From a virus (lineage: Duplodnaviria; Caudoviricetes), in IMG/VR virus record IMGVR_UViG_3300044448_007439, positions 1-26,875 of that record: 26,875 nucleotides of DNA. The stretch is one strand, 5' to 3'. The notes below the pieces were generated by a model. That model was not told the DNA's origin, searched no databases, and worked only from the letters and a program-made list of their open reading frames with translations. Each line of letters starts with the position of its first letter. The stretch's first letter is position 1. Of the stretch, positions 2,131 through 26,875 are shown one piece after another. A program made the translations under genes and the position numbers.

Positions 2131-2289
2131 CTATGACTCTACCGGGTCGTCTTTCCGTTGTCCAGCATTCATCCAAGCAGTCGGACAGTAAACCAACTGA
2201 TGACAATCGCACACTACGACCGGCTCAGGTGGATCGATCAGTCCTTCCTCCGTGAACACCTCTACTAAAGTCTTTGGCTCTTTACTCAC
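2131..2289 (-). CDS. Small hypothetical protein (52 aa, CDCH...C)
   Basis: Translated by hand: GTG overlapping the methyltransferase stop (GTGA), MSKEPKTLVEVFTEEGLIDPPEPVVVCDCHQLVYCPTAW...; fills the gap between neighbouring genes. Confidence 0.55.
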   Translation of the reverse strand: MSKEPKTLVEVFTEEGLIDPPEPVVVCDCHQLVYCPTAWMNAGQRKDDPVES

Positions 2290-3014
2290 AGTTTTAAGAC
2301 TCCTTGCGCTAATCGTTCGACGGCCATCTCGCAGTACCGTTCTTCGATTTCAATACCGATGGCTTTGCGGCCAAGATCTTTCGCTGCTCGGAGCGTCGTG
2401 CCCGACCCCATGAACGGGTCGCAGACCACGGCGGCAGTAGTAGCGGCAATCGCCCGTTTGGGAAGTGCCAATGGAAATGGTGCCGGATGCCGTTGGCTGT
2501 TTTCTGGGCGAATTGTCCAAACATCTCCCGCTTGTGAAGCGCTCTTGTCTGCAAGCACCCAATCAGGTCGCGCCCAGACCATAATCCACTCGCATTTCGG
2601 CAAGAAAAACGTCGTCGAAAAGTTAAGGCCGGTTTCACGATTCCAAATAACTACCTGACGCAACGGGATATCACCGCCATAAATCGTCGGAAGCTTCATT
2701 ACTCCGTTCATCGCTCGAGGTTTGTGGTTGTAGAAAATCGCTCCGTTATCGCTCAGGCTGTCCCACATCAGGCCCACCACTTCACGCTGCCAATCGTCGT
2801 ACTCGTGCTGAGGCATGTCGTCCGTAAACGACGCGTACCCGTTGACCAGCTTGCGCGCCGCCAAGCTGCCAGCCCCAAATTTGCCGCCGGTAGACGTCCC
2901 CAAATTGTACGGCGGCGACGTGAAGAACAAATCAACATCGGTCAACGTCGGCAGAATCTCGCGACAGTCGCCCAGATAGATCGTCACGCTGTCGTCCTCG
3001 TAATACGGAGTCAT
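2286..3014 (-). CDS. Orphan DNA methyltransferase, beta class (N6_N4_Mtase family; SPPY suggests N4-cytosine)
   Basis: GDCRE, FTSPPYN catalytic motif, HPAPFP, DPFMGSGTT SAM-binding motif, IGIEI..RYC. Confidence 0.92.
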   Translation of the reverse strand: MTPYYEDDSVTIYLGDCREILPTLTDVDLFFTSPPYNLGTSTGGKFGAGSLAARKLVNGYASFTDDMPQHEYDDWQREVVGLMWDSLSDNGAIFYNHKPRAMNGVMKLPTIYGGDIPLRQVVIWNRETGLNFSTTFFLPKCEWIMVWARPDWVLADKSASQAGDVWTIRPENSQRHPAPFPLALPKRAIAATTAAVVCDPFMGSGTTLRAAKDLGRKAIGIEIEERYCEMAVERLAQGVLKL

Positions 3015-3532
3015 GGCTTACAGGTCCAATACAACCACGAGTCGTTTCCGGTTTTCCAAATGTGGTAGGCCATCGCGACGTTGGTTTCAAAGTCAAGGAT
3101 CTTTGCCCAAACGTGGGCGGGCCATGCGTCTTCCCAAACGTCGTTGATTTGAAACCATCCTCTATCGATGGTGCCGTTGCGATTTGGTTTCGAGACCGCT
3201 TTCGGATTGTGGCTCGATTCGCACCAACTCACTGCAAGAGCTTCTTCGCAGTCCCACCTGTAAGCAGGGTTACAGACAACCCGTTCGATTGTGTTCTTCG
3301 GCGCTCGAGCAGCCTCCACCACGATGTTGTCAGGCTGAGTTGTCGTTGTCGTTGACGTTGTCGTCGTTGTGCTCGTTGTTGTCGTGCTACTCGTCGTCGT
3401 TGTTGTTACGATTGGTTCAGTCGTCGCCACTTTGAGATCCGGCACAACCTTGATCTCAGCGGAATCAACTTGAGTCGGACTACCGGAACAACTGACTAGG
3501 GCCAAAGTGGCGGCGGCTACCCAAATCCTCAT
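3011..3532 (-). CDS. Lipoprotein with Thr-rich linker and lysozyme-like/lytic transglycosylase domain
   Basis: Start MRIWVAAATLALVSC (lipobox-like, ATGA overlap with upstream stop); poly-Thr linker; AVSWCESS catalytic Glu, G.FQIN, N..MAY.IW, W..WTC. Confidence 0.8.
   Translation of the reverse strand: MRIWVAAATLALVSCSGSPTQVDSAEIKVVPDLKVATTEPIVTTTTTSSTTTTSTTTTTSTTTTTQPDNIVVEAARAPKNTIERVVCNPAYRWDCEEALAVSWCESSHNPKAVSKPNRNGTIDRGWFQINDVWEDAWPAHVWAKILDFETNVAMAYHIWKTGNDSWLYWTCKP
3338..3408 (-). repeat. Low-complexity ACN codon tract encoding the poly-Thr/Ser linker
   Basis: Imperfect (GTC/GTT)n on the + strand; protein reads TTTTTSSTTTTSTTTTTSTTTTTQ. Confidence 0.85.
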
Positions 3533-3687
3533 AACGCTTCGCATCTCCTCATCGCTGCAACCATCCACGGCGCTACGTCACACCGACTACAGCGTACGTC
3601 AACGTCGTCGGGATCTGCGTGCCAAAGATGCGATAACAGATCCTCTTTCGCTTGGCGTGTCAACGGCATTTCTGACTTAAGGTTCAT
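3529..3687 (-). CDS. Small hypothetical protein (H..H...CxxC...C)
   Basis: MNLKSEMPLTRQ...RCSRCDVAPW; tightly overlapping both neighbours. Confidence 0.55.
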   Translation of the reverse strand: MNLKSEMPLTRQAKEDLLSHLWHADPDDVDVRCSRCDVAPWMVAAMRRCEAL

Positions 3688-6051: not shown

Positions 6052-7731
6052 CTACGGCAACCAGCGCGTCCGAATCGCTCGATCAAGCACCTCAACCACT
6101 GGCTCGCCCCTGCGAGACGGCTGCAAAGCCTTCCATGCCATCAAAGCGCCCTCAGACGCCTCCTCCGGCCGTGAGAGAAGCCCAGAGACTGTTGTGGCTA
6201 CACGGGCCGGGTCGAGGCTGTACTGCTCTACAGCGCCCATATAGACGACACCGGGCAACTGGTAGTGTGCTCGCTCTCTTGCGTTGACAGCGATTGAGAG
6301 CACCGGAGCGCCACACAAAGCGGCCTCGTATACCGTTCTACCCTGCGAAGTGACAACGAGCGCTGCAGACGCCATGAGCGCTGCCATCGAGGCAGGGTGA
6401 TGGACTACACGAAAATTGTCGACTGGGATATCCGACTCACCAATCGGTGGTGTTACCAGCGTCACTGGATGCTCAAGCCACGGCTGCACTTCCAACTGCC
6501 ACTGAATCGCCTCAGCTACAGGGAACGAAAGACCAGCCGGATCGGTACCCCCGAACGTCACCACAATGCCACGTCTGGGCCGCTCGACATCAAACCCGGC
6601 GAACTCTGAGCGAGGTAAGAAGAACTCGGGGCCAGACAACCGCCCGTCTTCTGGCGCTGCTAACGCATCAAACTCGAGGTCAGCGCTCCCAGCCGGTAAA
6701 GCGGACTCGAATGTAACCGTCAAGACACCGACCGATCGTAGAGCCTGCACCTCAGCTTGCGTAGTGAATGGGCCGTCGAACACAACCACGTCGAAGTCGT
6801 CAAGTGGTGTTTCGTCCATCACCGGGTAACCGTGGTCAGCGATCATGTGGTGATAGAACTCTTTGTCTTCGTCGATCGTGCGAACACCGATCACCACGTC
6901 GTGATGCGACATCAGATCAGCTAGCGTCAGCGCTCTGCGTAGATGTCCGCTGCCGATGCGATGGCCGACCTCGGCAACGATCCCGATTTGAGCTTTGCCG
7001 ATGGAGCGATTCGCTATGTACAAATCGTTGTGCGTGTCGATGTCCAGCGCTTGAGCTTCGGGCACTTCGATCAAATGGTGCGGTATTCCAATCATTGGAG
7101 ATCCGTACTCTGGCTCGAGCCGTGGGAAGTTGCGACATAGCTGCAAGCCGCCGGTCTCGCGCCACACAGTTGTTTGCCCATACTGGCGATTCGACCTCGA
7201 CTCATACAACGGGCCGTCCATGCCCCACAACAAATGGCGTTCCGGTACGACGGTCGCTGCAGACGCTAACTCTTCTTCGTGGTTCACGAACTCGTCAAAC
7301 GCTGATTCAAGCCAGCCTTCGTACATCAAAGGTGACGTGCACTGGTGAATCCCGACGACACTATATGGATTCTCTACTGGCGTGATCGGGTCATCCCAAT
7401 TCACATTGTCTAACGATTGGAATTCCAGTGGATCGATGCGCCCTACGTCCCGTATTCGTTGTAGGACTTGCTCGGCTGCTACATGAACCGGTTGATCGTC
7501 GTCGACTGTTGGTCGTAATGCGACCGTTATACCGTGAGCCTGACAGACTTCGGCGATCTGCATGTCGTCGGTTGCGACTACTGCTTCGATGTCCCACCCT
7601 TCTGGTTCTATGCCTAGACAGCGGTAGGCGGCGTTTACGATTAGGGGCAAACCCGCTACGGGTCTGAGATTTTTGCGTGGTATGCCTCTGCTTCCGCCTC
7701 GGGCGGGAATGACTATTAGGGCTTTGTTCAT
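6052..7731 (-). CDS. Fusion of acylneuraminate cytidylyltransferase (NeuA/PseF-like) and a PseG/SpsG-like GT-B fold domain
   Basis: N-terminal IPARGGSRGIPRKN, VATDD, Q.TSP, ETG, DIDT; C-terminal IGSGHLRRALTLA, VTFGGTDP, MAALM.SA.LVVTSQGRTVYEA. Confidence 0.88.
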   Translation of the reverse strand: MNKALIVIPARGGSRGIPRKNLRPVAGLPLIVNAAYRCLGIEPEGWDIEAVVATDDMQIAEVCQAHGITVALRPTVDDDQPVHVAAEQVLQRIRDVGRIDPLEFQSLDNVNWDDPITPVENPYSVVGIHQCTSPLMYEGWLESAFDEFVNHEEELASAATVVPERHLLWGMDGPLYESRSNRQYGQTTVWRETGGLQLCRNFPRLEPEYGSPMIGIPHHLIEVPEAQALDIDTHNDLYIANRSIGKAQIGIVAEVGHRIGSGHLRRALTLADLMSHHDVVIGVRTIDEDKEFYHHMIADHGYPVMDETPLDDFDVVVFDGPFTTQAEVQALRSVGVLTVTFESALPAGSADLEFDALAAPEDGRLSGPEFFLPRSEFAGFDVERPRRGIVVTFGGTDPAGLSFPVAEAIQWQLEVQPWLEHPVTLVTPPIGESDIPVDNFRVVHHPASMAALMASAALVVTSQGRTVYEAALCGAPVLSIAVNARERAHYQLPGVVYMGAVEQYSLDPARVATTVSGLLSRPEEASEGALMAWKALQPSRRGEPVVEVLDRAIRTRWLP

Positions 7732-8378: not shown

Positions 8379-11300
8379 CTAGTCTACCGTTTCGGAGACG
8401 TAATTGCCAGCGTCATTACGAACGTATAGCTGCTGATTATCTCCATCCCACCAAGCCAACTGATTCTCACGTCTCGCTAGCCGACTCGCCTGCTCCGGCG
8501 ATGCACCCGTAAGTTTCACAGAAACATCCAGAAACAGATCGCCCGAGTCTTCGTCAAGCCACATGCCAACGTTCGCATCAGTCCGAGATCTCAAGCCTTG
8601 CTGAACATCGGGACTCTTCGACCAATCCACTATCGAATCAGCTACTGACTCCTCGGTCCAACCACCAGCGGGTGGACTGTATCGACCCTCGTACGCTTCG
8701 AGCGCCACTATCTTGCCGTCATCAACAAACGACTCGTTGCGCCAATCCCAAGTACCGCCGCCTTCGCCATAAGCACGTTGAGCTAACTCTTTCTTATAGC
8801 CCTGTACTCGGGTAGCCGAACGACGCCCATGCACTTTTTGGTCAGCGTGACCGGGATGCTTAAAAAACGAGATGCTCTTGTACACAGTCGGAGCATCAAC
8901 AACATCCAAATTAATTCGTATTGTTTTTTGTTCGCTCCCCCAAGTCTCGGGTTTATCCGAATCGAATCCTCCGGCGATCGTATTCGACTCAAATCGAGTG
9001 TTTTCTGTTTTGTAAGTGACTTTGAACCTACTGTTTCTTGGGAGAATGATTTCTCTCTCTTCACCGGAACCAGCGATTACTGTCTGACCGTCTTTTAACC
9101 GGATGACGGCTTCGACTCTGGTACCTTTTGCGTCCTCCATGAACCGCTGCTCCACACCGGAGTCTCCTGTGGTCGTTGACACAAAACCTTTATCGACGAA
9201 CTCATCGCCCTCTTTCACGTTCTCCCACATTTTCCCAGACTCGGAGTCTTGAGCAAATCCCATTCCCCGCATTACCGTGATCGGAGGAACCTCCACGCCC
9301 AACTGCTCAGAAGAAAACGCTCGATCCATATTGTCAATCTGATTGGCACCAACGGCGATCTGGGTGAAGTCTTCTGGAAAGTCACTATGTCGTAGCTTGT
9401 CGTTGACGTTGTTCCCGTCCACGTAGTCGGTTAGCTCTCTACGAACATTCTCATCAGCGTTTCTTCGTTTTTGGGTGCTTAGTTTGATTGCTTCTTTGGC
9501 GCTCGTTGCTTTGCCGCTACCGCCACCAGAACCAGCGGCACGACGACCGTGACTCTTCTGATCCTGATGCCCCGGATGCTTAAAAAACGAGACCGACTTC
9601 GCTGTCTTCACCGATGCTGCTCGGATCTCTTCCCACATTTCCGGTACATCATTTTCGTATCCGACCGGGTCTTCAAGCTGCCAACGAGCTATAACCGCTA
9701 CCACATCCTGTTCAGCTTTACTCATAGCTGCGTGCGGCCTCAAATCCATCGTGCCATTCCAATCACCTTGTTGGATCAGAGAGTCTCTGAAGTCTGGAGA
9801 CACTGCCGCCGCATCAATCAACGATTTGCCTTGAGCCTCCAAAGTCGACCGCTGCCTCGTGCTGTCCCAAAAGCCTTTTTCCGCCGCAGTAAGACCAAAA
9901 TCGCTAAATTGTTTCTGTCGAGCAAAATCCCCGAAATGCAAGTCAGACTGACCTTCATCGGGTTTATAGCCATATTTAGCCCACGTATAAGCACCGTTCA
10001 TCGAGTAGTGGGAAACAGCTTGGACTCGCTGATACTCAAACCCTGCAGCAGCAAGCTGCCCTTCGTGATGTCGAAGCATTGTCGTTCCGACACCATTTCC
10101 AGTATGGTCGTCGTAAATTTCCATTATGTCATTCTTGACAAACGCTGGCTTACCTTCCGAGCGTCCATCATTCAGCACTCTTTGAAGTGTCCCGGCGGTT
10201 TCCATCCCGGCTTCTGGAGTCATCACGTAAATGGTTGAGTCAACGGTGCCGTTCTTTCCACCAGCAAACTCGCTGTAGTGAACGTAATCGGCTTCTACGA
10301 TGTACGTTCCGTTTTTTGTTTCGATCTGCATTTCGTACGCATCTCGAGCGAACTCCTCAAACCCTTCAGCGTCATCGCTGTAGTTGTTTTTCATTTTTGC
10401 GGCTCTGACCGTACCAATCGGCGTTTCAACAGCGAAACCGTCCCGAACTTGACCAGCCGAATTAGTGAACTCGATGTCAGTCACACCTCCGCCAGTACTT
10501 GTGCCTCGCCGCCCATGAGCCTTTTGATCTTGATGACCCGGATGTTTGAACAATGGCACCGACTTATATACCGGCTTCGATTCGATTAGCTCAACGTCAA
10601 CAACAAGAATGTCTTTGCTGCCACCGGACCAGTTCTCGTTGTACTCATCGAAAACAGGTCTGCCGTTCTCTGTGCCCATCCATGTGTCCGGGTCGTCTTG
10701 GTCTTGGCCCTGTAAACGAGTCTTACCCGTTACTCGGAACTTGCTGCCCCTCGGCAAAATCAGTTCCTGCTCAGCGTCCATGCCGCCGATCACCGTTGTT
10801 CCAGCGGGAGCGGTGATGTTGAACTGAATGCCTTCCGACTCGCCACGAGCATCACGGTCAATGAAATCTCGAGTAACCGCCGTATTTGTGCTCGTCGATG
10901 TGAAACCCAGATCTGTGAACTCGTCGCCTGCCTCCAGCTTCGACATTGGATGAGCGTCAATACTTCTGTCTGCTTGAACGCCTCGATACAGTTTCGCATC
11001 ACGGGTCAACTCGACACCCATGTTGTCCTGCGAAAACGCTTTATCAAGATTGTCGACTCTGGCTTGCTTCACCGGCAGTGGCATTCCGCCAGTCGTCGTG
11101 TCAGATCTGCTTGTCATTGGGCCATCCGGGTCACGCAAGAATCCGTTAATTTGAGCGTGTTCTGATCCGATATACCCACGGTGCGCTATGCCAGCTTCAC
11201 TGTCCATAGAGTCAAGCGTCGATTTTTGTGTGCTGTATGCAAGAGCTTGCGACGGATAATTAGCTGTCGTAAAACCCCGCACATCGCCCTCTGATGCCGG

Positions 11301-14264
11301 GATATCCTCGCCGAGAAGCTGTCCTGAAGCTGACTGGCCTGACCTACGTTTCCGACCGTGACTCTTCTGATCGGCGTGGCCGGGATGTTTCACTATCCCG
11401 GTTCTTCTCCACAGTAAAATCGAAACCCGAGATCCGAGACTTGCTAAATCGTTGCGACCGGTTCGAACTTTTGGGGCTGCGCTACCAGCGTCCCCTTCTG
11501 CTTTACCGAAGCCTTCGCCGTACTGACCTAACCTTGATTCTGGGCTTTCGGTGCCTGCACGCTCCGACGGAACGATGCTGTAAGCGGCCGAACTCGATCG
11601 CTGACCCCTAGCTGGTATGCCGGGAACGACGTCGGGAGTTGGTCTTTGAGCGCGTGGAATCGAGCCGCCTTGCGCAGTACCAGAGAAGACTTCTGCTTCT
11701 ACATCGACTTTATTTGGGCCGCTCTTAGTGACTTTTGTCACTCGCAGTTGTGATCCACGATCAAGAATTGTTTCGCCTTGACTTTCGTTGCCAGCCAACA
11801 TGCGAGTGCCTGCTGGAACGTTAATAGCGTAATTGACTTGTACTTGTTGCCCGAAGCCTTGACGTCCGATTGCTTCCATGTCGCCTGCTGCATCGACAGA
11901 GTTTTCTCTTGTCGACATAAATCCCAGATCGACTGTTACATCGTTTTGTTTGATTTTGTTTCCAACGATCAGATCGGCTGAGTCTCCGGTTGCGGCGCTG
12001 CCAACTCGTTTTGTTTCTGAGCGATACACAGTTCGTGGTTGTTGCAACTCGAACGAAGCCTCATTGAAAGCTTTGTCCATGCCAGTTTGAACACTTCGTT
12101 CTTCTGGCGACAGATTTTCGTTTCGGGTGCGCAGTTTTTTGTTGACTGCGTTTGCCGTGTTGCCCTCGGTGTAGGAACGATGAGCGCTCTGCGCGTCTTC
12201 GCTTATTGGCTTACCTGTTTTCGGTGAATTTGCTTCACCTCTAATGATTCGTCGACTTTGTGCAGTGGGTTTGAATCCTTGCGAGTTGCCTTCATTTACA
12301 GCAGCAACTCCGCCGCGTCGTACACCGGTAGCTTCTCCTGCGTACGTTGCTCGGCGACCATGAGACTTTTGGTCCTGATGGCCCGGATGCTTGACCAGAA
12401 CGTAATCCCCGTTAGCTAACTTCCCAACTCTCATTGGTTCCTCTAACGATTTACGAGTCGAGAGTTTGTGGCCGCTCGGCAGTAAGTCAGTGTCGAACTT
12501 GCCTCCGGGGAAACGCCCAGTTCTCACTGCTCGCAAAAATGTGTTTACTCGAGCGTAAGCCCACTGATCGGGAGACTTTACGTTGGGTCTCACCGACTGC
12601 GGATTGGTTTTGTAAGCCCCAACGCCTCGCTCAAACACCGACGACAACATCCTCAACGTAACTTTTTTCGATGCTGCGTCGCCGTGCTTTTCGTTGTGCT
12701 CTTCGACTTTGCGTTGCAAGCCATCTCTAACTGATGCGCTAACTGCTTTGCTGACGTTCTTGTCTCGTTGCGAAATCTGCCGTGACCAAGCGAAACCTGC
12801 GTCGCCGCCCCACAACGCCCAAGCGATACGACCCGCTGACGGATACCCCGGTTCGCCTCTATTGAAGCCTTTACCTTTTTTGTCTACTTCGTGGCGAGCA
12901 AAGAAAGAGTGCATTCGTTTCACTGTTGACAGCGACAACGACTTACCATTCGAAATGTCTCGTGCTCTCGCAACACCAACAGCCGTTCCACCACGATTGA
13001 ACTCACGTCGCCACTCGAGACCACGTTTCGCTTCAGCAATCATTCCCGCTGTCGGCTTGTACGACTCTTGTTTCGCAAACATTGGCCCCGTCAAACCGGT
13101 ATCTCGACCTTGAAAGTCGCCGCCGGTTACCGCTCGTCCTTGAGTGCCACCCGGCAGATTCGATAACACCGGGGGAGCGCCCAACTGTTGGAGACGCTGA
13201 TTGCCTTGATTGACTTGCTCTCGGCCACCTATACGATGGCTCAGCAGAACGTTGCCGTAACCATTGGGATGCTGCGGCGTTTTAGAGTTATCGAACACAA
13301 ACGTTTCTTCGAAGTCGACACCAGAACCGGGTCGAGTAAGAATCTCAAAGTTTTCTCTGTTAGCTGTTTTAGCTCCCGGCACTCTGCCAGTGGGACGTGA
13401 CTCGGCTTCTGTCACTGCAGGCGGCACATAACGTCCACCGTGCTTATCGCCTCGTTTTTCTCCACCGACCCAACGATTCGATGCTGACTCGATCGCCATT
13501 TCTGGGTCAGTGTCAACCATGATCGCTCGCATTTCGTAACCAGCGCGTTTAGTTGACGAAATTTTGTCGATCTGCTTTTGCTCGTTTGTGCCCCCAAGTG
13601 TGCCGTCAATCACCACATTCTTTTTTTCGGCCAACAACCGATTGTGGTACATCTTCGAAATATGTGAGCTTTCTTCGTGCACCAAGTTGACCATTTCTCC
13701 GGCCGATGCGCCGTCAACTACTGGCACCATGCCTTTATCGGCCATGATTGATTTGATGTCGTCAGAGTTTTCTCCTGCGTGACTCTTAAACGATCCGTCG
13801 GCGTTCAGTTCAACTCCAACAGCGTCTGCGACCCCGTTTTCCGATTTTTTAAGTATCGATGTTTTACCTGCACCGGGTGGGCCTGCTAGCACGACAGCTT
13901 GACCGTCGGCCGGTACGTCAGCGTTCTTTGCCATCAACTCGTCAACGATTTGGTCGTGCATTGCGGCACGCTGCGGCGTGTAGCTGCCGTCTTCGCGCTT
14001 ATACAGATACTCTGTGTCGAACCGTTCGCCGGTCGCCCAATCTCCGCCATGCTTAGCGTTGTACTCGTCGATCGCTTCGGCTCGAGCTTTGACTTGATTG
14101 ACGTCGTCCCAGTCTTTGACTTCTGGACCATCAAACTTTGCCGCTTTTGCTGCTGCGCCTCGACGGCCTCGTCCATGCACTTTCTGATCCGAGTGACCCG
14201 GATGTTTCTTAACTGGTGTCAATGACACCCCGGCCCGCAAAGCAGCTATTGTCGAGAGTTTCAT
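8379..14264 (-). CDS. Giant multi-effector (polyvalent) protein, ~1961 aa: zeta-like kinase, two small unknown domains, three ADP-ribosyltransferases, GNAT and a C-terminal unknown domain
   Basis: Uninterrupted ORF; likely start MKLSTI at a TAATG overlap (14264); domain motifs listed as separate features; six KHPGHxDQKxHGR repeats. Confidence 0.9.
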   Translation of the reverse strand: MKLSTIAALRAGVSLTPVKKHPGHSDQKVHGRGRRGAAAKAAKFDGPEVKDWDDVNQVKARAEAIDEYNAKHGGDWATGERFDTEYLYKREDGSYTPQRAAMHDQIVDELMAKNADVPADGQAVVLAGPPGAGKTSILKKSENGVADAVGVELNADGSFKSHAGENSDDIKSIMADKGMVPVVDGASAGEMVNLVHEESSHISKMYHNRLLAEKKNVVIDGTLGGTNEQKQIDKISSTKRAGYEMRAIMVDTDPEMAIESASNRWVGGEKRGDKHGGRYVPPAVTEAESRPTGRVPGAKTANRENFEILTRPGSGVDFEETFVFDNSKTPQHPNGYGNVLLSHRIGGREQVNQGNQRLQQLGAPPVLSNLPGGTQGRAVTGGDFQGRDTGLTGPMFAKQESYKPTAGMIAEAKRGLEWRREFNRGGTAVGVARARDISNGKSLSLSTVKRMHSFFARHEVDKKGKGFNRGEPGYPSAGRIAWALWGGDAGFAWSRQISQRDKNVSKAVSASVRDGLQRKVEEHNEKHGDAASKKVTLRMLSSVFERGVGAYKTNPQSVRPNVKSPDQWAYARVNTFLRAVRTGRFPGGKFDTDLLPSGHKLSTRKSLEEPMRVGKLANGDYVLVKHPGHQDQKSHGRRATYAGEATGVRRGGVAAVNEGNSQGFKPTAQSRRIIRGEANSPKTGKPISEDAQSAHRSYTEGNTANAVNKKLRTRNENLSPEERSVQTGMDKAFNEASFELQQPRTVYRSETKRVGSAATGDSADLIVGNKIKQNDVTVDLGFMSTRENSVDAAGDMEAIGRQGFGQQVQVNYAINVPAGTRMLAGNESQGETILDRGSQLRVTKVTKSGPNKVDVEAEVFSGTAQGGSIPRAQRPTPDVVPGIPARGQRSSSAAYSIVPSERAGTESPESRLGQYGEGFGKAEGDAGSAAPKVRTGRNDLASLGSRVSILLWRRTGIVKHPGHADQKSHGRKRRSGQSASGQLLGEDIPASEGDVRGFTTANYPSQALAYSTQKSTLDSMDSEAGIAHRGYIGSEHAQINGFLRDPDGPMTSRSDTTTGGMPLPVKQARVDNLDKAFSQDNMGVELTRDAKLYRGVQADRSIDAHPMSKLEAGDEFTDLGFTSTSTNTAVTRDFIDRDARGESEGIQFNITAPAGTTVIGGMDAEQELILPRGSKFRVTGKTRLQGQDQDDPDTWMGTENGRPVFDEYNENWSGGSKDILVVDVELIESKPVYKSVPLFKHPGHQDQKAHGRRGTSTGGGVTDIEFTNSAGQVRDGFAVETPIGTVRAAKMKNNYSDDAEGFEEFARDAYEMQIETKNGTYIVEADYVHYSEFAGGKNGTVDSTIYVMTPEAGMETAGTLQRVLNDGRSEGKPAFVKNDIMEIYDDHTGNGVGTTMLRHHEGQLAAAGFEYQRVQAVSHYSMNGAYTWAKYGYKPDEGQSDLHFGDFARQKQFSDFGLTAAEKGFWDSTRQRSTLEAQGKSLIDAAAVSPDFRDSLIQQGDWNGTMDLRPHAAMSKAEQDVVAVIARWQLEDPVGYENDVPEMWEEIRAASVKTAKSVSFFKHPGHQDQKSHGRRAAGSGGGSGKATSAKEAIKLSTQKRRNADENVRRELTDYVDGNNVNDKLRHSDFPEDFTQIAVGANQIDNMDRAFSSEQLGVEVPPITVMRGMGFAQDSESGKMWENVKEGDEFVDKGFVSTTTGDSGVEQRFMEDAKGTRVEAVIRLKDGQTVIAGSGEEREIILPRNSRFKVTYKTENTRFESNTIAGGFDSDKPETWGSEQKTIRINLDVVDAPTVYKSISFFKHPGHADQKVHGRRSATRVQGYKKELAQRAYGEGGGTWDWRNESFVDDGKIVALEAYEGRYSPPAGGWTEESVADSIVDWSKSPDVQQGLRSRTDANVGMWLDEDSGDLFLDVSVKLTGASPEQASRLARRENQLAWWDGDNQQLYVRNDAGNYVSETVD
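8895..9445 (-). other. ADP-ribosyltransferase domain 3 (VIP2/exoenzyme-like, R-S-ExE), approximate bounds
   Basis: Y...VNDKLR, TVMRG, DKGFVSTT, EREIILPRNSRFKV. Confidence 0.85.
9735..10480 (-). other. GNAT-like acetyltransferase module, approximate bounds
   Basis: MEIYDDHTGNGVGTTML resembles acetyl-CoA binding motif A (Q/RxxGxG); downstream GAYTWAKYGY resembles the F/WxKxGF motif. Confidence 0.65.
10585..11190 (-). other. ADP-ribosyltransferase domain 2 (R-S-ExE), approximate bounds
   Basis: Y...INGFLR, KLYRGV, DLGFTSTS, EQELILPRGSKFRV. Confidence 0.88.
11685..12200 (-). other. ADP-ribosyltransferase domain 1 (R-S-QxE), approximate bounds
   Basis: YT...VNKKLR, TVYRS, DLGFMST, QGETILDRGSQLRV. 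Confidence 0.82.
13250..13990 (-). other. Zeta-toxin-like P-loop kinase domain, approximate bounds
   Basis: LAGPPGAGKTS Walker A, NSDDIK, VHEESS, NVVIDGT, R...GGRYVP. Confidence 0.82.
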
Positions 14265-14644
14265 TAGTACTGAGTAGAGTCGCGTGGAATCCAATTTGCA
14301 CTGCGTTTACGACGACGTCGGCCAGACCCGCCGTAACCACCCATGTATCTGCGTCGACGGCCGTAACCGTCCATTACGGAAATCATCTCGTCGTCCATGT
14401 CATCTTCGCCGAGAAGCTCACCTTGCGCCTGCATGTCGCCCAAAGCGTGGATTATCTCCATCAACGCTTGCCGCATTTCTTCTGGGGCTTGAAGCCTAAT
14501 AAAGCACTGCCACGCCATCAGAAGATGAGTCATCGGATCAGGTCCGTAATACTCCCCATCATCGCCGTGACCCATCGTGACTTCTTCTTCTTTGAAGACA
14601 CCTTCTCTTCGTTGGCGTTCATCCCAAGCTTCTTTGTCATTCAT
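14264..14644 (-). CDS. Hypothetical protein, acidic body and Arg/Gly-rich tail (126 aa)
   Basis: MNDKEAW start with GAGGAG RBS; stop overlaps the giant gene start. Confidence 0.65.
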   Translation of the reverse strand: MNDKEAWDERQRREGVFKEEEVTMGHGDDGEYYGPDPMTHLLMAWQCFIRLQAPEEMRQALMEIIHALGDMQAQGELLGEDDMDDEMISVMDGYGRRRRYMGGYGGSGRRRRKRSANWIPRDSTQY

Positions 14645-14795
14645 CACTGATCTCCTCAAGGTCAACACCAGCAGTTATTAGCGCCAACTCCGTTGCTCCT
14701 TGCATTGACGTCGAGTAATTAATTACTTCTTCGCCTAGTTCGTCGAAGACCACGTCGTTGAAAAACGGAAGATCGGGCACTTGTTCAAGCTTCAT
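14637..14795 (-). CDS. Small acidic protein (52 aa) directly after the MuF-peptidase gene
   Basis: Translated by hand: MKLEQVPDLPFFNDVVFDELGEEVINYSTSMQGATELALITAGVDLEEISDE; ATGA overlap with the MuF stop. Confidence 0.6.
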   Translation of the reverse strand: MKLEQVPDLPFFNDVVFDELGEEVINYSTSMQGATELALITAGVDLEEISDE

Positions 14796-17398
14796 AACAG
14801 TCTCCATTCTGTCAGAACTTTTTCAACTAAGGGCGCTATGTCTCTCTCGAACTCTTCTGCCTGCCACTGTGGCGATATCATGCCGCCGAAGTTTTGCTCG
14901 AACGTACTGCCTAAAGAATCAACAATTTCGTCTGTGTCCAAACCAACTAAGTCATCATCGATGGCTTTCAGAGCACCGGCAACTTCAGCACGTTTACCGA
15001 CACGAGTGCTCTGCAGGATTACCCACTGATGGAAAGCTCGCGCCCAAATTTCCATTGGGTTAGTCAAATACGTCATAGCTTCCGTTTTTGTTACCCCTTC
15101 TAGCGCTAAAGCCCCAGCGTCAACTGCTCGAAGAAGCGTTGCCATGCTGTTGCTGTTCTTAGCTGCTAGATAAAATTCCATTTCTGGACTGTCAGCGATG
15201 CTTAACGGCCCAAATCCTCTGATGTTGCGCATAATGGCTTCGTCGAGCGCTGCAGAGTTACCGCTAGTCAGCAAAGACTGATCTTCTATTTGGCGAAACG
15301 CTGCCTCTACTTGGTTCTTAAGTAGTTCGAAACGAGATTTAGCGACTGACCCTGCGCCCGGACTTTCAATGTTGAAGTCGATACGGTGACCGTATTCGTG
15401 GAAGAACGTTTGGATTGCAAGACCGCTAAGCGCTTCTGCGTCGCCAGTGATTGCGTCAGCTTGTCTGGTAATCCCGATTACTGGTGGTGCGGGCGACCCC
15501 GTTCGGCCTGCTCTCACATCCCAACGGTTGTTGATTGCTTCGCCATCGGTTGCTGCTGGTTTCTTCCTCGCTGGATGGAAGTACCCGTTTGCTTTGCCGA
15601 TCATTTCGTCGTTGTAGCGAACCTCAACGTTCCCTCTAACAAACGCAGGCGGTTTCTTCAACAGAGTAGACATCACTGCAACCGCTCGAGTTGTGAGCTT
15701 TCGTGCTCCTGAGTCTGGTTCGAACTCTTTGACCATGTCTTGGAAGTTTGATGAACCACGCTGTTCCGGCGGTACTTGCGGGAACAACGCTGGCCCCGGC
15801 TCAGCAAAGTCAATGCCTCCGGTCGGTAACGCTAGATCTTCGTCCGTGATCTGCAGATCTGGTAAGTACTCAACGATTCGGCATCGACAGTTGGGATGTA
15901 ACGGCGGGTGCTGTCCTTGCCATTTCTCTTTAAGGTCGGTCAACTCGCCTGTCGGAGTGAGTCGTTGGTTCGACTCAAACGTTCCACCAATTTCTTGTAT
16001 TTGGCCTGCCATCGGTGCGCAACGTGCACATAGACGATCGTCTTCAGTGACATCCCAAACCATGCGAGCGTTACGAGGAAGAATCCCGTTGTTTTGTGCG
16101 TTTGCTGCACCAGCAAGATACGCAGCGTTAGCGACTCGTATCGTTTCTGTGCGTGCAATTCGTTCAACTCTTATGTCTAGCTCGTGACTCATAGCTTTCG
16201 CCCAAGCGCTTTCGTCTCCTCGACGCGCCCACGAAGCGAACCGCAAACCCGCATTGTTGCGCTGTTTGCCTAACCATTTGCGACCTTTCGAGTCGAGAGT
16301 TACTGGTCGCAGGCCCGAGGTTTGTTGTTCGCCTACTCGACCGAGTGTGCGTCCGCTTTTTTTATCGAACAGAATGTCTCGGTTTCTTCCTCGAACTCCT
16401 ACTCGGTTTCGCACAATGTCGGGACTGATCGATCCTGAACGGTCTGTTGACCGCAAATCGAAGAACGTTTCACTGGCTAAATTTGCGTCGAACTCTTCGC
16501 TCAAAAACAGTTGTGCGCCCGGTGTTCGCTCAAAAAACTCTGGTGCGTAGCTGGCTGCAGGATATTTGAAACGTCTGCCGACTTGCCTCAGTTTGTTTAA
16601 CGAATCGTTACGGAAAGCTTGTTTCTCCAGATCACCCATGTACCGATTGGCTCGCTCGACTTGGCTAGGCAACAAACCGTAAGTTGGTTCTGCGACTTGT
16701 GGCAAGATGCGGCGTAACTCACCAATCAAACCACCTTGCCCGGTTTGACCCGCTATTCCAGCAAGCTCAGAATCTGCGGCTGCTTCGAGAGTCGCTACCA
16801 TTGCGCGTCTCATCGCTTGCACACCTTCTTCATACATATCGAGATAGCGGACTTGACCGAAACCAGCGACACCTGCTTGACGCATCACTTCGTCGGGAAC
16901 AATTTCGAAGCCTGTTGCTAAACCGGGAACTAACCCAGCTACTCCACGCTCAAAAACTCTGACAGCTTCAGCGCCCACACCAAACACTGCTTCGTTCATA
17001 GCGTCAGCGGCTGCTACTGCCGCCCGAAGGTTAAGTATCTCACCAAGGTTTCTTTCGTCTTCGGAAGGTTCAGCTTTGAACAACGTCCACGGAGGCGCTG
17101 GGCCACCTTCCTGAATGCTGAAAGATGACTGATTCAAGTGATACCCGACGACGCTCACCACGTTTTCGACTTCGTAAAGACTAATTGGTCGTTCTGGGTT
17201 ACCCATCAAATACGAGATTGCTTTACCGATGTCACGTTGATATATCTTCAACGATTTTTTTAAGTGCTTCCGTACTTCTGGCAAGCCTGCGTCAGCGACA
17301 GCTAGCAGCGGATCAGTTGCTTGTTTTTCTAAACGACCGAAACCGCATCTACGCCAGCTATTTGTTTTTACAGGTGCCGCTAATGTGAGTCCTTGCAC
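14792..17398 (-). CDS. MuF-family minor head protein with C-terminal zincin-like metallopeptidase extension
   Basis: RIARTE, W....DDRLCARC, HPPLHPNCRC MuF motifs; C-terminal HEYGH and Y....EIWARAF; lies after the portal; start codon uncertain. Confidence 0.88.
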   Translation of the reverse strand: MQGLTLAAPVKTNSWRRCGFGRLEKQATDPLLAVADAGLPEVRKHLKKSLKIYQRDIGKAISYLMGNPERPISLYEVENVVSVVGYHLNQSSFSIQEGGPAPPWTLFKAEPSEDERNLGEILNLRAAVAAADAMNEAVFGVGAEAVRVFERGVAGLVPGLATGFEIVPDEVMRQAGVAGFGQVRYLDMYEEGVQAMRRAMVATLEAAADSELAGIAGQTGQGGLIGELRRILPQVAEPTYGLLPSQVERANRYMGDLEKQAFRNDSLNKLRQVGRRFKYPAASYAPEFFERTPGAQLFLSEEFDANLASETFFDLRSTDRSGSISPDIVRNRVGVRGRNRDILFDKKSGRTLGRVGEQQTSGLRPVTLDSKGRKWLGKQRNNAGLRFASWARRGDESAWAKAMSHELDIRVERIARTETIRVANAAYLAGAANAQNNGILPRNARMVWDVTEDDRLCARCAPMAGQIQEIGGTFESNQRLTPTGELTDLKEKWQGQHPPLHPNCRCRIVEYLPDLQITDEDLALPTGGIDFAEPGPALFPQVPPEQRGSSNFQDMVKEFEPDSGARKLTTRAVAVMSTLLKKPPAFVRGNVEVRYNDEMIGKANGYFHPARKKPAATDGEAINNRWDVRAGRTGSPAPPVIGITRQADAITGDAEALSGLAIQTFFHEYGHRIDFNIESPGAGSVAKSRFELLKNQVEAAFRQIEDQSLLTSGNSAALDEAIMRNIRGFGPLSIADSPEMEFYLAAKNSNSMATLLRAVDAGALALEGVTKTEAMTYLTNPMEIWARAFHQWVILQSTRVGKRAEVAGALKAIDDDLVGLDTDEIVDSLGSTFEQNFGGMISPQWQAEEFERDIAPLVEKVLTEWRLL

Positions 17399-17569: not shown

Positions 17570-17676
17570 CGATTGATAAAACGAGCGACCATGACCAGAA
17601 TTCCGCTACATGCGCTGATGGCTGCTATTGCTATCACCACTGCAGCATCACTGAAAGTTTGTATGTGAGCGAGCAT
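17566..17676 (-). CDS. Small single-TM peptide (36 aa)
   Basis: MLAHIQTFSDAAVVIAIAAISACSGILVMVARFINR; GAGGAGG RBS; TAATG overlap with the portal stop. Confidence 0.55.
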   Translation of the reverse strand: MLAHIQTFSDAAVVIAIAAISACSGILVMVARFINR

Positions 17677-19004
17677 TACACCTCCTCGAGATTCATTTGT
17701 GGTTGTGGGGCTTCTTCTTCTGCCTCGGGGATGTCGAGGTTTTCTGGTTGTGGTAGTCCTAGCAACGACCGCAAGAATCTTTCGTCTTCCTCGTCGGGTG
17801 ACAACATTCCAGCGTTCACAAGTCGCTCCAGCGCTAGCGCTAACTCCTCTGTGTCTGGTCGTTGTAGCGAACCTGCAACCATCTCAGGGTATTCGTCTAA
17901 GTCCCAACCGTTCATTTTCATTAAGCGTGGAATCTCGTGCCGGTTGATGACGTCAGCTACTTCCATGACTTGAGCGGTCAAGGACGAAAGCCACATTGAT
18001 TGTTTGACTGTTCCGAGCGCCAAACTTCCTACGTTTTCGTGTCCTAAAAGGATCACGTCAGAAAGCGTAGTCATCGCCATTTCTTTGGTGTGCCGGTCAA
18101 TGATTTCGTTTGTGTTGAGTTGCCGTGAACCGCCCGACGACAAAAGCTTCATGTCGACTAAACGGTTGCCTTTCTCGTCGAAGACTGACGGCAACACCAA
18201 AGAGGCTCGTTCGTTTCGTTTTAACTCTGACGCAATTTTTTTGTATTCCGAAAGCGCAGCTTTTTCTGTTGACGAAGCAGCACTGTCGAATAGCTCTTCG
18301 GGAGCGTAGAACACTGGCAACCCTGCAAAGTCACGTTCAACTCCGATTGCTTCGTACTCCATGATCCGACGTCGGTAGTACCAGCTTGTGTAAGCGTTCC
18401 TTAAGATGCTGCGACCCTCGGGATTGTTCTTGGTTCGTACTGTTCTGAATAACAGTGACCGGTTGATTGGAATGTACCGGTTAGCGCCGAGTTGATCCGC
18501 TTGGACCATGCCCTGTATGCCGCCAGTCTCATCGATGTCCCAATAACGAAGAGTGTCTTGCGCTCTTCCAGCGAATTTGCGCCAACCAATTCGACCGTCG
18601 TCAAAGTTCGATGAAGCTTTCTTGCCGTTTATCGGTTGAGTGCCGTCTCGTTTTTTGTAGACGACTTCGAAGTAGGACCATCCGAAGACAAGTTTTGACA
18701 ATGCTTCAGAGATGAAATCCCCCCAAGACATCGACATGTCCATCATGCAGCTTTCAACAAAAGTGGCTGCTGCTAAATCTTGATCGGTTTCGCCTCGTGC
18801 TTCAACCGTCCACGTCACACCACGAAGCTGCTGGATTATTGCGTGGAGCATTGCCCCCAAAACAGCGTCGTTGTCAGACATTTCTCGGTAAACGCGCATA
18901 CCTCGAGCGCCGGTCAGATCAGTCAACCATTCTTCTTGAATGATGCCGCGTGTCTGTTTTAGACCCGAATAGCCCGTTTCTGAGAAAATGTTTCGCGGTG
19001 CCAT
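17676..19004 (-). CDS. Phage portal protein (DUF935/Mu gp29-like)
   Basis: Follows TerL; G.SGL....G.I.EE, YREMSDND, FGWSYFEVVYK, NNPEGRSILR, E.IGVERD.AGLP; start MAPRN at 19004. Confidence 0.85.
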   Translation of the reverse strand: MAPRNIFSETGYSGLKQTRGIIQEEWLTDLTGARGMRVYREMSDNDAVLGAMLHAIIQQLRGVTWTVEARGETDQDLAAATFVESCMMDMSMSWGDFISEALSKLVFGWSYFEVVYKKRDGTQPINGKKASSNFDDGRIGWRKFAGRAQDTLRYWDIDETGGIQGMVQADQLGANRYIPINRSLLFRTVRTKNNPEGRSILRNAYTSWYYRRRIMEYEAIGVERDFAGLPVFYAPEELFDSAASSTEKAALSEYKKIASELKRNERASLVLPSVFDEKGNRLVDMKLLSSGGSRQLNTNEIIDRHTKEMAMTTLSDVILLGHENVGSLALGTVKQSMWLSSLTAQVMEVADVINRHEIPRLMKMNGWDLDEYPEMVAGSLQRPDTEELALALERLVNAGMLSPDEEDERFLRSLLGLPQPENLDIPEAEEEAPQPQMNLEEV

Positions 19005-19014
19005 ACGCTTGATC

Positions 19015-20487
19015 TTACATCGGTACTGGAACTGAGCGGCGAACATGCTGCTCAACTGATTGAGCCGGACGACTCTCTCCAGTTGGAATCGCTGCTCGTC
19101 GGTGACGACCGGGTGCACATGCCCACAAACCGGACAGCGTATCTATCGTGTCGTCGTGTACTCCGGGGCTAGGGAAGTGTGATAGTTCGTTGAGGATTGG
19201 ACCGTTCCAAGAGTCCTGCACGAATTGAACTCGGCGTTGTTCCATCGCTGCTGCAACCGCTTCGGCTCTTGTTCGTTTGTCTCCTGTTGGTCGATACCCG
19301 TGCACTGCTACGAGACCTTCAAGGTGTCGTTGTAGCTCTTCGAGTTGGGCTACCCCTCCTGATCCCGGTTCTTGCTCAACGAAGTATCTCAACTGGTTCT
19401 TGCCGTAAACCCGGATGTCTCTTTGAGCTACTGAAAGAATGCGTTCGTTTCTTGCGCCGGGTCGCAATCTAAAACGTTCCATGTCTTCGATTCGCCACAT
19501 TCTTGTACGTGTGTCAAGAGCGGCGAGTGTGCCAACAGTCCAGTCTGGGTCTCGATTCGTGTCGCTTGGTTCTGTTCCCGCCAGATCCCAGTAGCGGGCA
19601 CGCCACGGTTTGCCTTTTAGTGGAGCGTCCACCATCTCTATCCATGAGATGTCGAACATTTCGCCGACGTCTTCAAGAATTTCGGCGTAAAGCTCTTGTC
19701 GCCCTAACCGAGTGCCTCTTGTTGGTTCGATCACTTGGTCAATAAAAGCAGGAGCCAAATTCTGGACGTTGTCGAACGTTGATCTGCGGGTGACAACAAT
19801 CGACATGTCTTCGGCGGTGTCGGGTGCCGCTAGTTCTCTGGTGAGTTTGTTCGGTTTCGGGGTCGTGGTTATCACGATTTGTGGTTGATTCCCGAGTCGT
19901 ACGCCGTAACGCAGGTTCCCGAACGTGCTGTTCGTTCTATCGTTTAGTCCGAACCCGGCGTCTCGCCACGACGAAAGCTCGTCACACCATGCGGCGTGCC
20001 ACTGCGGTCCACGTAACCGGTCAGGTTTCTCGGCTGACGCAATTTTGAAATATGAGCCATCTGCGAGTCGTAGCTCTCCGAACGTTCTCCGCCACGAGTT
20101 GTCAACAGATCCTCCGATGAGTCGGCTCGGTGGAAGAACCGACAATAAACCTGATTCTCCTTCGATCATTGTTTCTCGAGCGTCAGCATTGGTCGGACCA
20201 ACGAGCGCACCTCTAAATTTTTGTCCCGTAGCGGACTGTATGGCACTGCGCTCAGCCATCCACTCAGCACCCGTCCGTGTTTTGCCCCACCCACGGCCAG
20301 CCAAGATTAGCCAGATGTACCAGTCACCTGTCGGTGTCCGCTGCTCTGGCCTAGCGAATAGCGACCAGTCGCGATCGAGAATGAGATCAATTTCGCTGTC
20401 GTTTAGCTCATCCCAAATTTCAGGATGTCGAGCGATAGTTTCTGCTGGAGCCAAAACGCTTGGGTCACGTCGTAGTTCGTTATCCAT
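19015..20487 (-). CDS. terL: Terminase large subunit
   Basis: LAGRGWGKT Walker A, LRGPQ, WCDE Walker B, ITTTP, RQELYAE, YWDLA, HDDTID nuclease motifs. Confidence 0.95.
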   Translation of the reverse strand: MDNELRRDPSVLAPAETIARHPEIWDELNDSEIDLILDRDWSLFARPEQRTPTGDWYIWLILAGRGWGKTRTGAEWMAERSAIQSATGQKFRGALVGPTNADARETMIEGESGLLSVLPPSRLIGGSVDNSWRRTFGELRLADGSYFKIASAEKPDRLRGPQWHAAWCDELSSWRDAGFGLNDRTNSTFGNLRYGVRLGNQPQIVITTTPKPNKLTRELAAPDTAEDMSIVVTRRSTFDNVQNLAPAFIDQVIEPTRGTRLGRQELYAEILEDVGEMFDISWIEMVDAPLKGKPWRARYWDLAGTEPSDTNRDPDWTVGTLAALDTRTRMWRIEDMERFRLRPGARNERILSVAQRDIRVYGKNQLRYFVEQEPGSGGVAQLEELQRHLEGLVAVHGYRPTGDKRTRAEAVAAAMEQRRVQFVQDSWNGPILNELSHFPSPGVHDDTIDTLSGLWACAPGRHRRAAIPTGESRPAQSVEQHVRRSVPVPM

Positions 20488-21010
20488 TGTCGACTCGATC
20501 TTCGACAGAAGCTAACCGCTCAGCGATTTCTGTGAGCTTTTCTTTCGCTGCAGTTTTCCGTTCTTCTTCTGTTTCCTGATCTTCAAGCGGTGCATCTACT
20601 GTTCCGACAGCTTCTCGTTCGATTCGAGTTGCTACGTCAAGCCACCTTGCTAGATCGCTTGGAGCGAGAATGTCAGGATCAATGTCTTCTAGTCGAATCA
20701 TTGCTTTGTCCAGAAAGCCTCGTGCGATTGTTGCGTGTCGGCGACGTACTTCTAATAGGTCTTCTAGGTTTTCTGCTTGAGCTTTTCTGTCGACGAACTC
20801 ATCCCATGCAGCGGCTCGGTTGACCCACATAAAACGGGACGACCATTCTTTTAGCTGACGGATCTGTACTTCCGTCGCTACTGGTACTTCGTAATGAATT
20901 GCTGCAGCAGCAGGTATCGATCTTGTTGTAGGAGGCAGATCTCTGTATGTGGTGAATCCTTGGAACGACTGATGAGTTTCCTCCGGCTGTCGATCCCAAA
21001 GCTCAGTCAT
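20480..21010 (-). CDS. terS: Putative terminase small subunit
   Basis: Directly upstream of and overlapping terL; W.RQPEET...F..YRDL and WS....WV.RA.AWD helical HTH-like pattern. Confidence 0.7.
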   Translation of the reverse strand: MTELWDRQPEETHQSFQGFTTYRDLPPTTRSIPAAAAIHYEVPVATEVQIRQLKEWSSRFMWVNRAAAWDEFVDRKAQAENLEDLLEVRRRHATIARGFLDKAMIRLEDIDPDILAPSDLARWLDVATRIEREAVGTVDAPLEDQETEEERKTAAKEKLTEIAERLASVEDRVDNG

Positions 21011-26435: not shown

Positions 26436-26875
26436 CTAGTTGTTCGTAAGTGCCGACCACGTCTTGGGGCCAATGCGGCCGTCTTTCGAAAGACGTCTAC
26501 GCTCTTGGAATTGCTTAGTTGCTCTTTCTGACTTTTTCCCAAATACTCCGTCGATAAGCCGGACACCGAGATGTTCTTGACACCATCGTACATCGGGACC
26601 ACGACTGCCGCGCTTGATAACCCGACCCGGATATGGGCGAGCCTCAGTCGTCACGACCGGGCGGGTCTGCTTGGCTCGAAGCCGAGACCACGTCTGCTTG
26701 CCCACAATGCCATCAACAGTTAAACGGTTTTTACGTTGGAAGCGACGAACTGCTAAATCTGTCGTAGCTTGAAATGAGCCATCAACACTGATTTTGTAGC
26801 CGATCGAGTTGAGCGCTTTCTGCAACGTCACAACATGGTCGCCCTTATCGCCCTTGCGCAAAGTAGCGCTGGCGT
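26436..26875 (-). CDS. Endolysin C-terminal region with two peptidoglycan-binding (PG_binding_1-like) repeats; N-terminus beyond the window
   Basis: LRKGDKG..V..LQ..L...G....VDG.F...T..AV..FQ....L.VDGIVG.QTW repeated twice; frame open to the window edge. Confidence 0.88.
   Translation of the reverse strand, partial: ASATLRKGDKGDHVVTLQKALNSIGYKISVDGSFQATTDLAVRRFQRKNRLTVDGIVGKQTWSRLRAKQTRPVVTTEARPYPGRVIKRGSRGPDVRWCQEHLGVRLIDGVFGKKSERATKQFQERRRLSKDGRIGPKTWSALTNN

Follow-up and report, generated by a model that had tools for sequence, protein, structure and literature searches.

A repeated His-rich peptide in a giant phage head-module polyprotein is a likely header of prohead-processed capsid cargo

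In a 26,875-nucleotide stretch of viral DNA (IMG/VR record IMGVR_UViG_3300044448_007439; hereafter, the window) we found a giant head-module protein that carries six copies of a short His-rich peptide, referred to here as the tag. The tag is a real, selected, and widespread feature, and it likely identifies prohead-processed capsid cargo with an undescribed, predicted header that would be retained after cutting. No published description of the peptide was found in full-text searches that covered article main texts, mostly outside subscription journals; the motif might be present in the alignment files of the 2017 polyvalent-protein paper (PMC5512222).

The gene lies on the minus strand, from an ATG at position 14264 to a stop codon at 8379, and codes for 1961 amino acids organized in eight modules with six tags (the form kept as protein record P0064); an alternative TTG start at 14294 would give 1971 amino acids. 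It follows, on the same strand, the genes of the small terminase subunit (20480 to 21010; phrog_6299), the large terminase subunit (19015 to 20487; profile match), a portal protein of the Portal_Mu/P23-45 type (17676 to 19118; PF06074, E value 1e-34), and an untagged MuF protein (14792 to 17398; PF04233), as found with Pfam and other profiles within the window. The original observation of an ORF of about 1960 amino acids downstream of portal and MuF genes holds. The C-terminal extension of MuF (14792 to 15799, minus strand) has an HExxH motif and a weak LPD1 match and might be a zincin, while no Pfam match to a zincin-like peptidase, a common though not universal part of polyvalent proteins, was found in the giant ORF.

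Directly behind the head module (109 to 2126 and 6052 to 7731, minus strand) there is a sugar-modification cluster with a NeuB-like synthase, an NAD-dependent epimerase, and a cytidylyltransferase fusion; the protease and capsid genes are absent from their usual place. Other genes in the window, at 2286 to 3568 and 26436 to 26861 (both on the minus strand), code for a DNA N6/N4 methyltransferase, an SLT-like lysozyme whose stalk is rich in Thr, and, at the contig end, a protein that resembles peptidoglycan-binding repeats by eye. The DNA of the window was found in seawater metagenomes: 12 of the 24 listed runs contain at least half of its sampled words, three of them being possibly the source, and none of the listed runs holding window DNA is an RNA data set.

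The tag, KHPGH[SQA]DQK[VSA]HGR, occurs in six exact copies starting at amino acids 20, 625, 959, 1240, 1562, and 1802. The first (14169 to 14207) comes after a leader of 19 amino acids and reads K followed by HPGHSDQKVHGR; the others are encoded at 12354 to 12392, 11352 to 11390, 10509 to 10547, 9543 to 9581, and 8823 to 8861, all on the minus strand and all located by pattern match. A degenerate DNA pattern of the tag gave these 6 matches and none in any of 100 dinucleotide shuffles. Pairs of copies differ at 7 to 14 of 39 nucleotides, mostly synonymously (5 to 9 synonymous and 0 to 2 nonsynonymous codon differences among 13 codons), so conservation acts on the peptide. Both the six copies and the peptide-level selection proposed at the outset are thus confirmed. 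The Gly/Arg-rich stretch after each tag, originally described as basic, is only mildly basic (1 to 4 R/K and 0 to 2 D/E in 15 residues), and in 35% of the wider family there is instead a Trp two residues after the motif. The tag was also considered as a DUF7211 peptide and rejected: a 41-amino-acid tag piece matched no Pfam family at E values up to 1, and a DUF7211 pattern gave no match in tagged loci. A tag profile had no match below an E value of 7 among PDB sequences.

The first module (amino acids 20 to 397; 13074 to 14207, minus strand, as for all the modules below) was assigned to the zeta-toxin-like P-loop kinases on the basis of a PF06414 match over the cutoff (E value 4.7e-12) and a Walker A motif. 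Three modules, ART1 (625 to 958; 11391 to 12392), ART2 (959 to 1239; 10548 to 11390), and ART3 (1562 to 1801; 8862 to 9581), match PF03496 over the cutoff (E value 6e-29) and the Alt-like family phrog_802. All three bear R, ST-type, and QxE (ART1) or ExE (ART2 and ART3) motifs, which we take to be those of the R-S-E (Alt/VIP2-like) ADP-ribosyltransferases, and were assigned to this group by motifs and profile. The assignment of the GNAT-like module (1240 to 1561; 9582 to 10547) is indirect, through its homologs: it has no Pfam match of its own and its single-sequence fold model has a low pLDDT (37), while five of nine aligned homologs match PF00583, and a PDB search with the homolog profile retrieves acetyltransferases (best E value 1.7e-4). 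The predicted zeta kinase, three ARTs, and GNAT behind tags are therefore supported by profile matches, the last through homologs only.

The last tagged module, M6 (1802 to 1961; 8382 to 8861), is a C-terminal alpha/beta domain of phages that belongs to no named family. Its AlphaFold2 model has a mean pLDDT of 85 with tag residues 1 to 16 below 50, so that the domain behind the tag appears folded, and fold comparison gave matches to viral folds. For an identity as SAM lyase the fold gives only a weak hint (top match 7ock_L; Z 3.5, rmsd 4.3, 92 aligned residues), which the sequence does not support, with an hhalign probability of 0.1% against T3 gp0.3. M6 (8382 to 8810, minus strand) is a widespread unnamed phage domain that also occurs in cultured actinophages, and the family is found untagged in cultured phages.

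Two further modules, located between the zeta kinase and ART1, have no tag. U1 (398 to 505; 12750 to 13073; phrog_2859, E value 4e-29) starts after F-A-K, and the DUF5824-like U2 (506 to 624; 12393 to 12749; PF19141, E value 1.2e-5) starts with A after V-x-K, the opening being N-V-S-K followed by A. The proposal of one tag for each of six modules must hence be amended to six tags on six tagged modules out of eight. U1 lacked the tag in all 11 distinct copies; it is a conserved, never-tagged domain of head-module polyproteins (present also in locus L065, 11480 to 11794) and is possibly a structural or loading domain.

Comparison with relatives showed that the tags mark module borders and that modules are exchanged from tag to tag. 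In P0065 the GNAT module is missing exactly tag to tag, and ART3 is only 55% identical between neighbors of 95 to 99% identity; P0066 lacks U1, U2, and GNAT and has one extra ART; and in P0011 the end of GNAT is joined to M6. These gains and losses support the modularity that had been anticipated. In four public runs there was no contig joint skipping a module from tag to tag, and no piece spanned the giant gene.

The same K sites can be followed by headers with fewer His residues (FNPNHDARGRF, FNPTGINQY, and YSEDQERDDHGRF). Other short headers after K sites were found in tagged genomes, some of them within the same proteins, and one M6 homolog has a GRF-type header in place of the tag. Headers of the forms FNPxHDxxGRF, NPxGxNQY, GGxGSGN, and YSEDQ..HGRF after the same genome-specific residue were seen in L003, L040, L041, L065, L091, L346, and P0061.

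Two degenerate scans of viral contigs (the second over 54 of 64 parts) located at least 199 tagged loci, which were collapsed into 99 contig groups carrying 299 different copies of H-x(1-4)-H-(x)-[DN]-Q-x-x-H-[GA]; three of the groups had no match to this pattern. Three His and an Asp are conserved, with one to four residues between the first two His. Searching 1.84 billion representative proteins with a profile built from the six tags yielded 63, of which 39 are without a Pfam family at E values up to 0.001. In all eight loci chosen to span K, E, N, R, F, and Y before the tag (98 of 119 ORFs scanned), the tagged genes lie amid portal, MuF, protease, or capsid genes. Their cargo includes ARTs, zeta, PI3/4-kinase/HipA-like kinases, GNAT, Nudix, metallopeptidase-like, DUF3626, and DUF7178 domains. 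Of 113 effector-type domains in loci that had been chosen for tag presence, 71 have a tag no more than 150 amino acids upstream and 42 have none, versus none tagged among 74 structural or untagged-type domains (portal, MuF, protease, ferritin, U1, and U2; local profiles, de-duplicated). These results support the head-module location and the position in front of interchangeable effector-type domains expected originally.

Short tag queries gave no tblastn match in 50,697 cultured phage records, which is weak evidence given the query length. Cellular genomes (4 of 64 parts), scanned with a loose DNA pattern, gave 121 loci, nearly all of them chance by eye and with mixed preceding residues; two look genuine, and E precedes both tags. 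An extreme cargo array was found in locus L081 (G037), with nine consecutive genes and 17 tags between MuF and an XkdF protease. Many related head modules contain ferritin-like genes, found between the protease and the scaffold/capsid genes in L027 (13200 to 13712), L049 (5883 to 6377), and L005 (2109 to 2753), and inteins are present within a portal protein (L015, 14231 to 17539) and a MuF-containing polyprotein (L042, 8750 to 12844). In the cultured mycobacteriophage I3, genes 110 and 111 (L343, 6084 to 9426), near the capsid gene, share an initial [IV]T[SA]AREQ motif that may represent a further leader system, and an M6-like domain is present in one of the two.

The leading K originally taken as part of the tag proved not to be so, as the residue before the first His (His1) is genome-specific, being K, R, E, N, F, Y, or A across related viral contigs (68 K, 10 R, 6 N, 4 F, 3 E, 3 Y, and 2 A in the first copy per group). 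This residue was uniform in 42 of 43 multicopy contig groups, compared with a permutation mean of 21.3 and a maximum of 31 in 20,000 (one L148 copy, in which the pattern caught an inner His, was recoded from G to K for this count and omitted from the pair-identity analysis). Pair identity within groups was 0.999 at position -1 versus 0.11 to 0.29 at positions -2 to -6. When only the 10 groups containing a non-K copy are considered, within-group pairs agreed in 62 of 63 cases, versus a proportion of 0.088 between groups. The independent protein set gave 32 uniform proteins out of 34 with several copies, and in 18 of 19 groups of mixed His-to-Asp spacer length the residue adjoins His1 whatever the length. 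Exceptions are L087, which mixes N and A, and the mixed proteins P0021 and P0034. Position -3 of the K copies is V, L, I, M, or F in 80% of cases, even leaders of three or four residues (MVK and MSVK) retain the site, and no copy in the sets of 299 and 116 has Met directly before His1. This residue is most likely the P1 of a prohead-protease site, in which case the His peptide would be a new N terminus retained after cutting.

The proteases encoded by the tagged phages agree with this reading. We surveyed 50 records, 27 non-K and 23 K, the latter picked for length. XkdF-type proteases were found in 10 of 23 K versus 0 of 27 other records (Fisher P = 1e-4), ClpP-type in 5 of 7 N versus 1 of 43 others (P = 6e-5), Mu-like in 4 of 7 F/Y (two of the four under the cutoff) versus 0 of 43 others (P = 2e-4), and HK97-type in 5 of 8 R versus 6 of 42 others (P = 9e-3), although these P values overstate independence, since surveyed records (e.g., G005 and G006) are related by descent. 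The HK97-type matches outside R come from both A records and, weakly, from 4 of 23 K records. No XkdF match was found in 13 of the 23 K records; many non-K records are fragments, and XkdF is present in none of the six that are at least 90% complete. The T4-type protease PF03420 had no match in the 50 records, an uninformative result since no positive control matched either. G027 combines a portal of the window type (by eye) with a Mu-like protease and F before the tag, which indicates that P1 tracks the protease and not the portal.

The residue before the conserved mature capsid fold, a boundary placed by position and read by eye, was the same as the tag P1 in 12 of 16 records (4 N, 4 R, 2 E, and 2 K), plausible in three (G022, G042, and G045), and mismatched in G026, where the tag follows A, yet the protease start and capsid boundary read K. 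The two E-type records whose capsid gene was examined have the common phrog_133/4523 capsid type. Overall, the tag fits a prohead-protease substrate, with a P1 that correlates with both the capsid maturation boundary and the protease family.

Within the window contig itself (51% complete), no XkdF protease (PF14550) was matched, and a NeuB search found no relatives extending it; L216, which continues 10 kb further downstream, has no recognizable protease by eye, and L200 and L201 are short. Among the scanned records, those with the closest tagged portals (G032 and G037 to G040, 45 to 47% identity) each encode an XkdF protease; the three protease sequences that were read start with A after V-S-K, like the opening of U2. 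From these relatives we infer that the window phage uses a Lys-cutting protease.

Considering these data together, we lean slightly toward a capsid-cargo polyprotein that is cut before each His and whose identical header acts afterward as a handle for each fragment. The precursor would be loaded into the prohead and cut there after hydrophobic-x-Lys, before His-Pro-Gly-His-x-Asp-Gln-Lys-x-His-Gly-Arg. That the prohead protease cuts before each His1 is, as a separate step, rather probable. Each released effector would then start with the same header, whose freed His1 amine, together with the three His and the Asp, may form, in the weakest step of the scheme, a small arm gripping metal and/or DNA that would keep the fragment in the head and/or lead it out with the DNA. 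The ARTs, GNAT, and zeta kinase would modify host targets early in infection, judging from their families. A single loading address suffices per polyprotein, yet every module keeps a selected header, and a role after cutting fits this pattern. The presence of the same header with different portals, capsids, and proteases suggests a generic partner: metal, DNA, or the exit path. Weighing against this reading are the mixed cases (L087, G026, P0021, and P0034), the K records lacking an XkdF match, the descent shared by related records, the untagged effector-type domains and untagged M6 relatives, and the headers with few His. More tentatively, tailed phages with unrelated heads might share a portable header family (HDQxxHG, FNPxHDxxGRF, NPxGxNQY, and GGxGSGN) that, exposed by whatever prohead protease is present, would grip a partner common to all of them, either metal and DNA or the exit channel, to hold and inject each cargo fragment, and so be a general ejection signal, although we consider this extension doubtful.

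A different role would be that of a loading signal that acts ahead of the cut by binding the scaffold, the capsid, or the portal, like the T4 capsid-targeting sequence (CTS), with the cut as ordinary trimming. Stand-alone genes have very short leaders that leave little else to serve as an address, and the tag is on effector-type rather than structural domains. However, one signal would load the whole polyprotein while the tag of each module is under purifying selection, and the same peptide with different portals, proteases, and capsid families is awkward for a protein-specific address. The T4 CTS, moreover, is cut away according to the accessible text (PMC9026906), and we regard a loading signal as unlikely. 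Even less likely is a motif that would serve just as prime-side sequence in protease recognition and make internal cuts efficient: it always adjoins P1, but it is common to at least four protease families, among them the ClpP type, in whose phages the capsid and protease sites lack the motif, and the K sites that precede U1 and U2 occur in its absence.

The header could also be a metal-binding peptide without a trafficking role (Zn, Ni, Cu, or Fe buffering in the head, or cargo folding or activation): three His and the Asp are conserved, a free His1 would suit chelation, as at N-terminal His sites, and many related head modules contain ferritin-like genes. Nevertheless, headers with few His occupy the same sites, even on the same cargo family, which indicates that three-His metal binding is not a universal function, and the His1-His2 spacing ranges from one to four residues; a purely metal-binding role thus seems improbable. 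Finally, the repeats could be recombination joints or relics of fused single genes, the peptide itself having no function in the polyprotein, which would suit the loss, gain, and swapping of modules exactly at tags (P0065, P0066, and P0011). This explanation was already disfavored by the mostly synonymous differences between copies, which imply selection on the peptide, and by the adjustment of P1 to the protease of each genome, and of the four it is the one to which we give least credence.

The choice, retention, and ejection of internal phage proteins are known for few systems, and in T4 the signal is discarded on cutting. A header retained after cutting and common to several lineages would be a directly testable peptide for cargo retention and ejection and a sequence marker for anti-host enzymes that are injected, among them the numerous unnamed domains found behind it. 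P1 would predict the cleavage rules of head proteases: XkdF (K), ClpP (N), Mu-like (F/Y), and HK97-type (R). If true, a portable header family would be a genome mark of injected effectors, and protease specificity could be read from sequence.

Among known systems, the giant protein resembles the polyvalent proteins and MuF-linked effectors, described in the accessible text as large multidomain proteins of the packaging gene block, with ART, GNAT, and zeta-like domains, for which packaging and injection have been predicted (Iyer et al. 2017, PMC5512222; Iyer et al. 2022, PMC9503650). With several effector domains (zeta, three ARTs, GNAT-like, and three unnamed) beside terminase, portal, and MuF, it fits this class of phage proteins. 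For polyvalent proteins, processing by zincin autoproteolysis or a fused assemblin has been proposed (PMC5512222, PMC9503650) and the accessible text names no repeated border peptide, whereas for the giant protein the evidence points to a prohead protease and a retained header. The CTS of T4 IPI to IPIII, as far as the available description goes, is likewise a short peptide that adjoins a prohead-protease site in nonstructural head cargo; however, it precedes the cut, at the N terminus, and is removed by gp21 (PMC9026906), while the tag comes after the predicted cut, is repeated internally, and is common to unrelated head types. All the conserved tag residues lie after the genome-specific P1 (the cut position being itself predicted), which sets the tag apart from a T4-type CTS. 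The P3-P1 rule of the K tags is similar to those reported, in the accessible sections, for T4 gp21, which cuts after I/L-x-E (PMC12991175), and for SPN3US gp245, which cuts ejection proteins after A-x-E (PMC10052503). SPN3US also applies one short P3-P1 rule to capsid, portal, and ejected proteins. Its propeptides are removed, and the available text describes no polyprotein whose modules are separated to share one mature N terminus, which is what is predicted for the giant protein.
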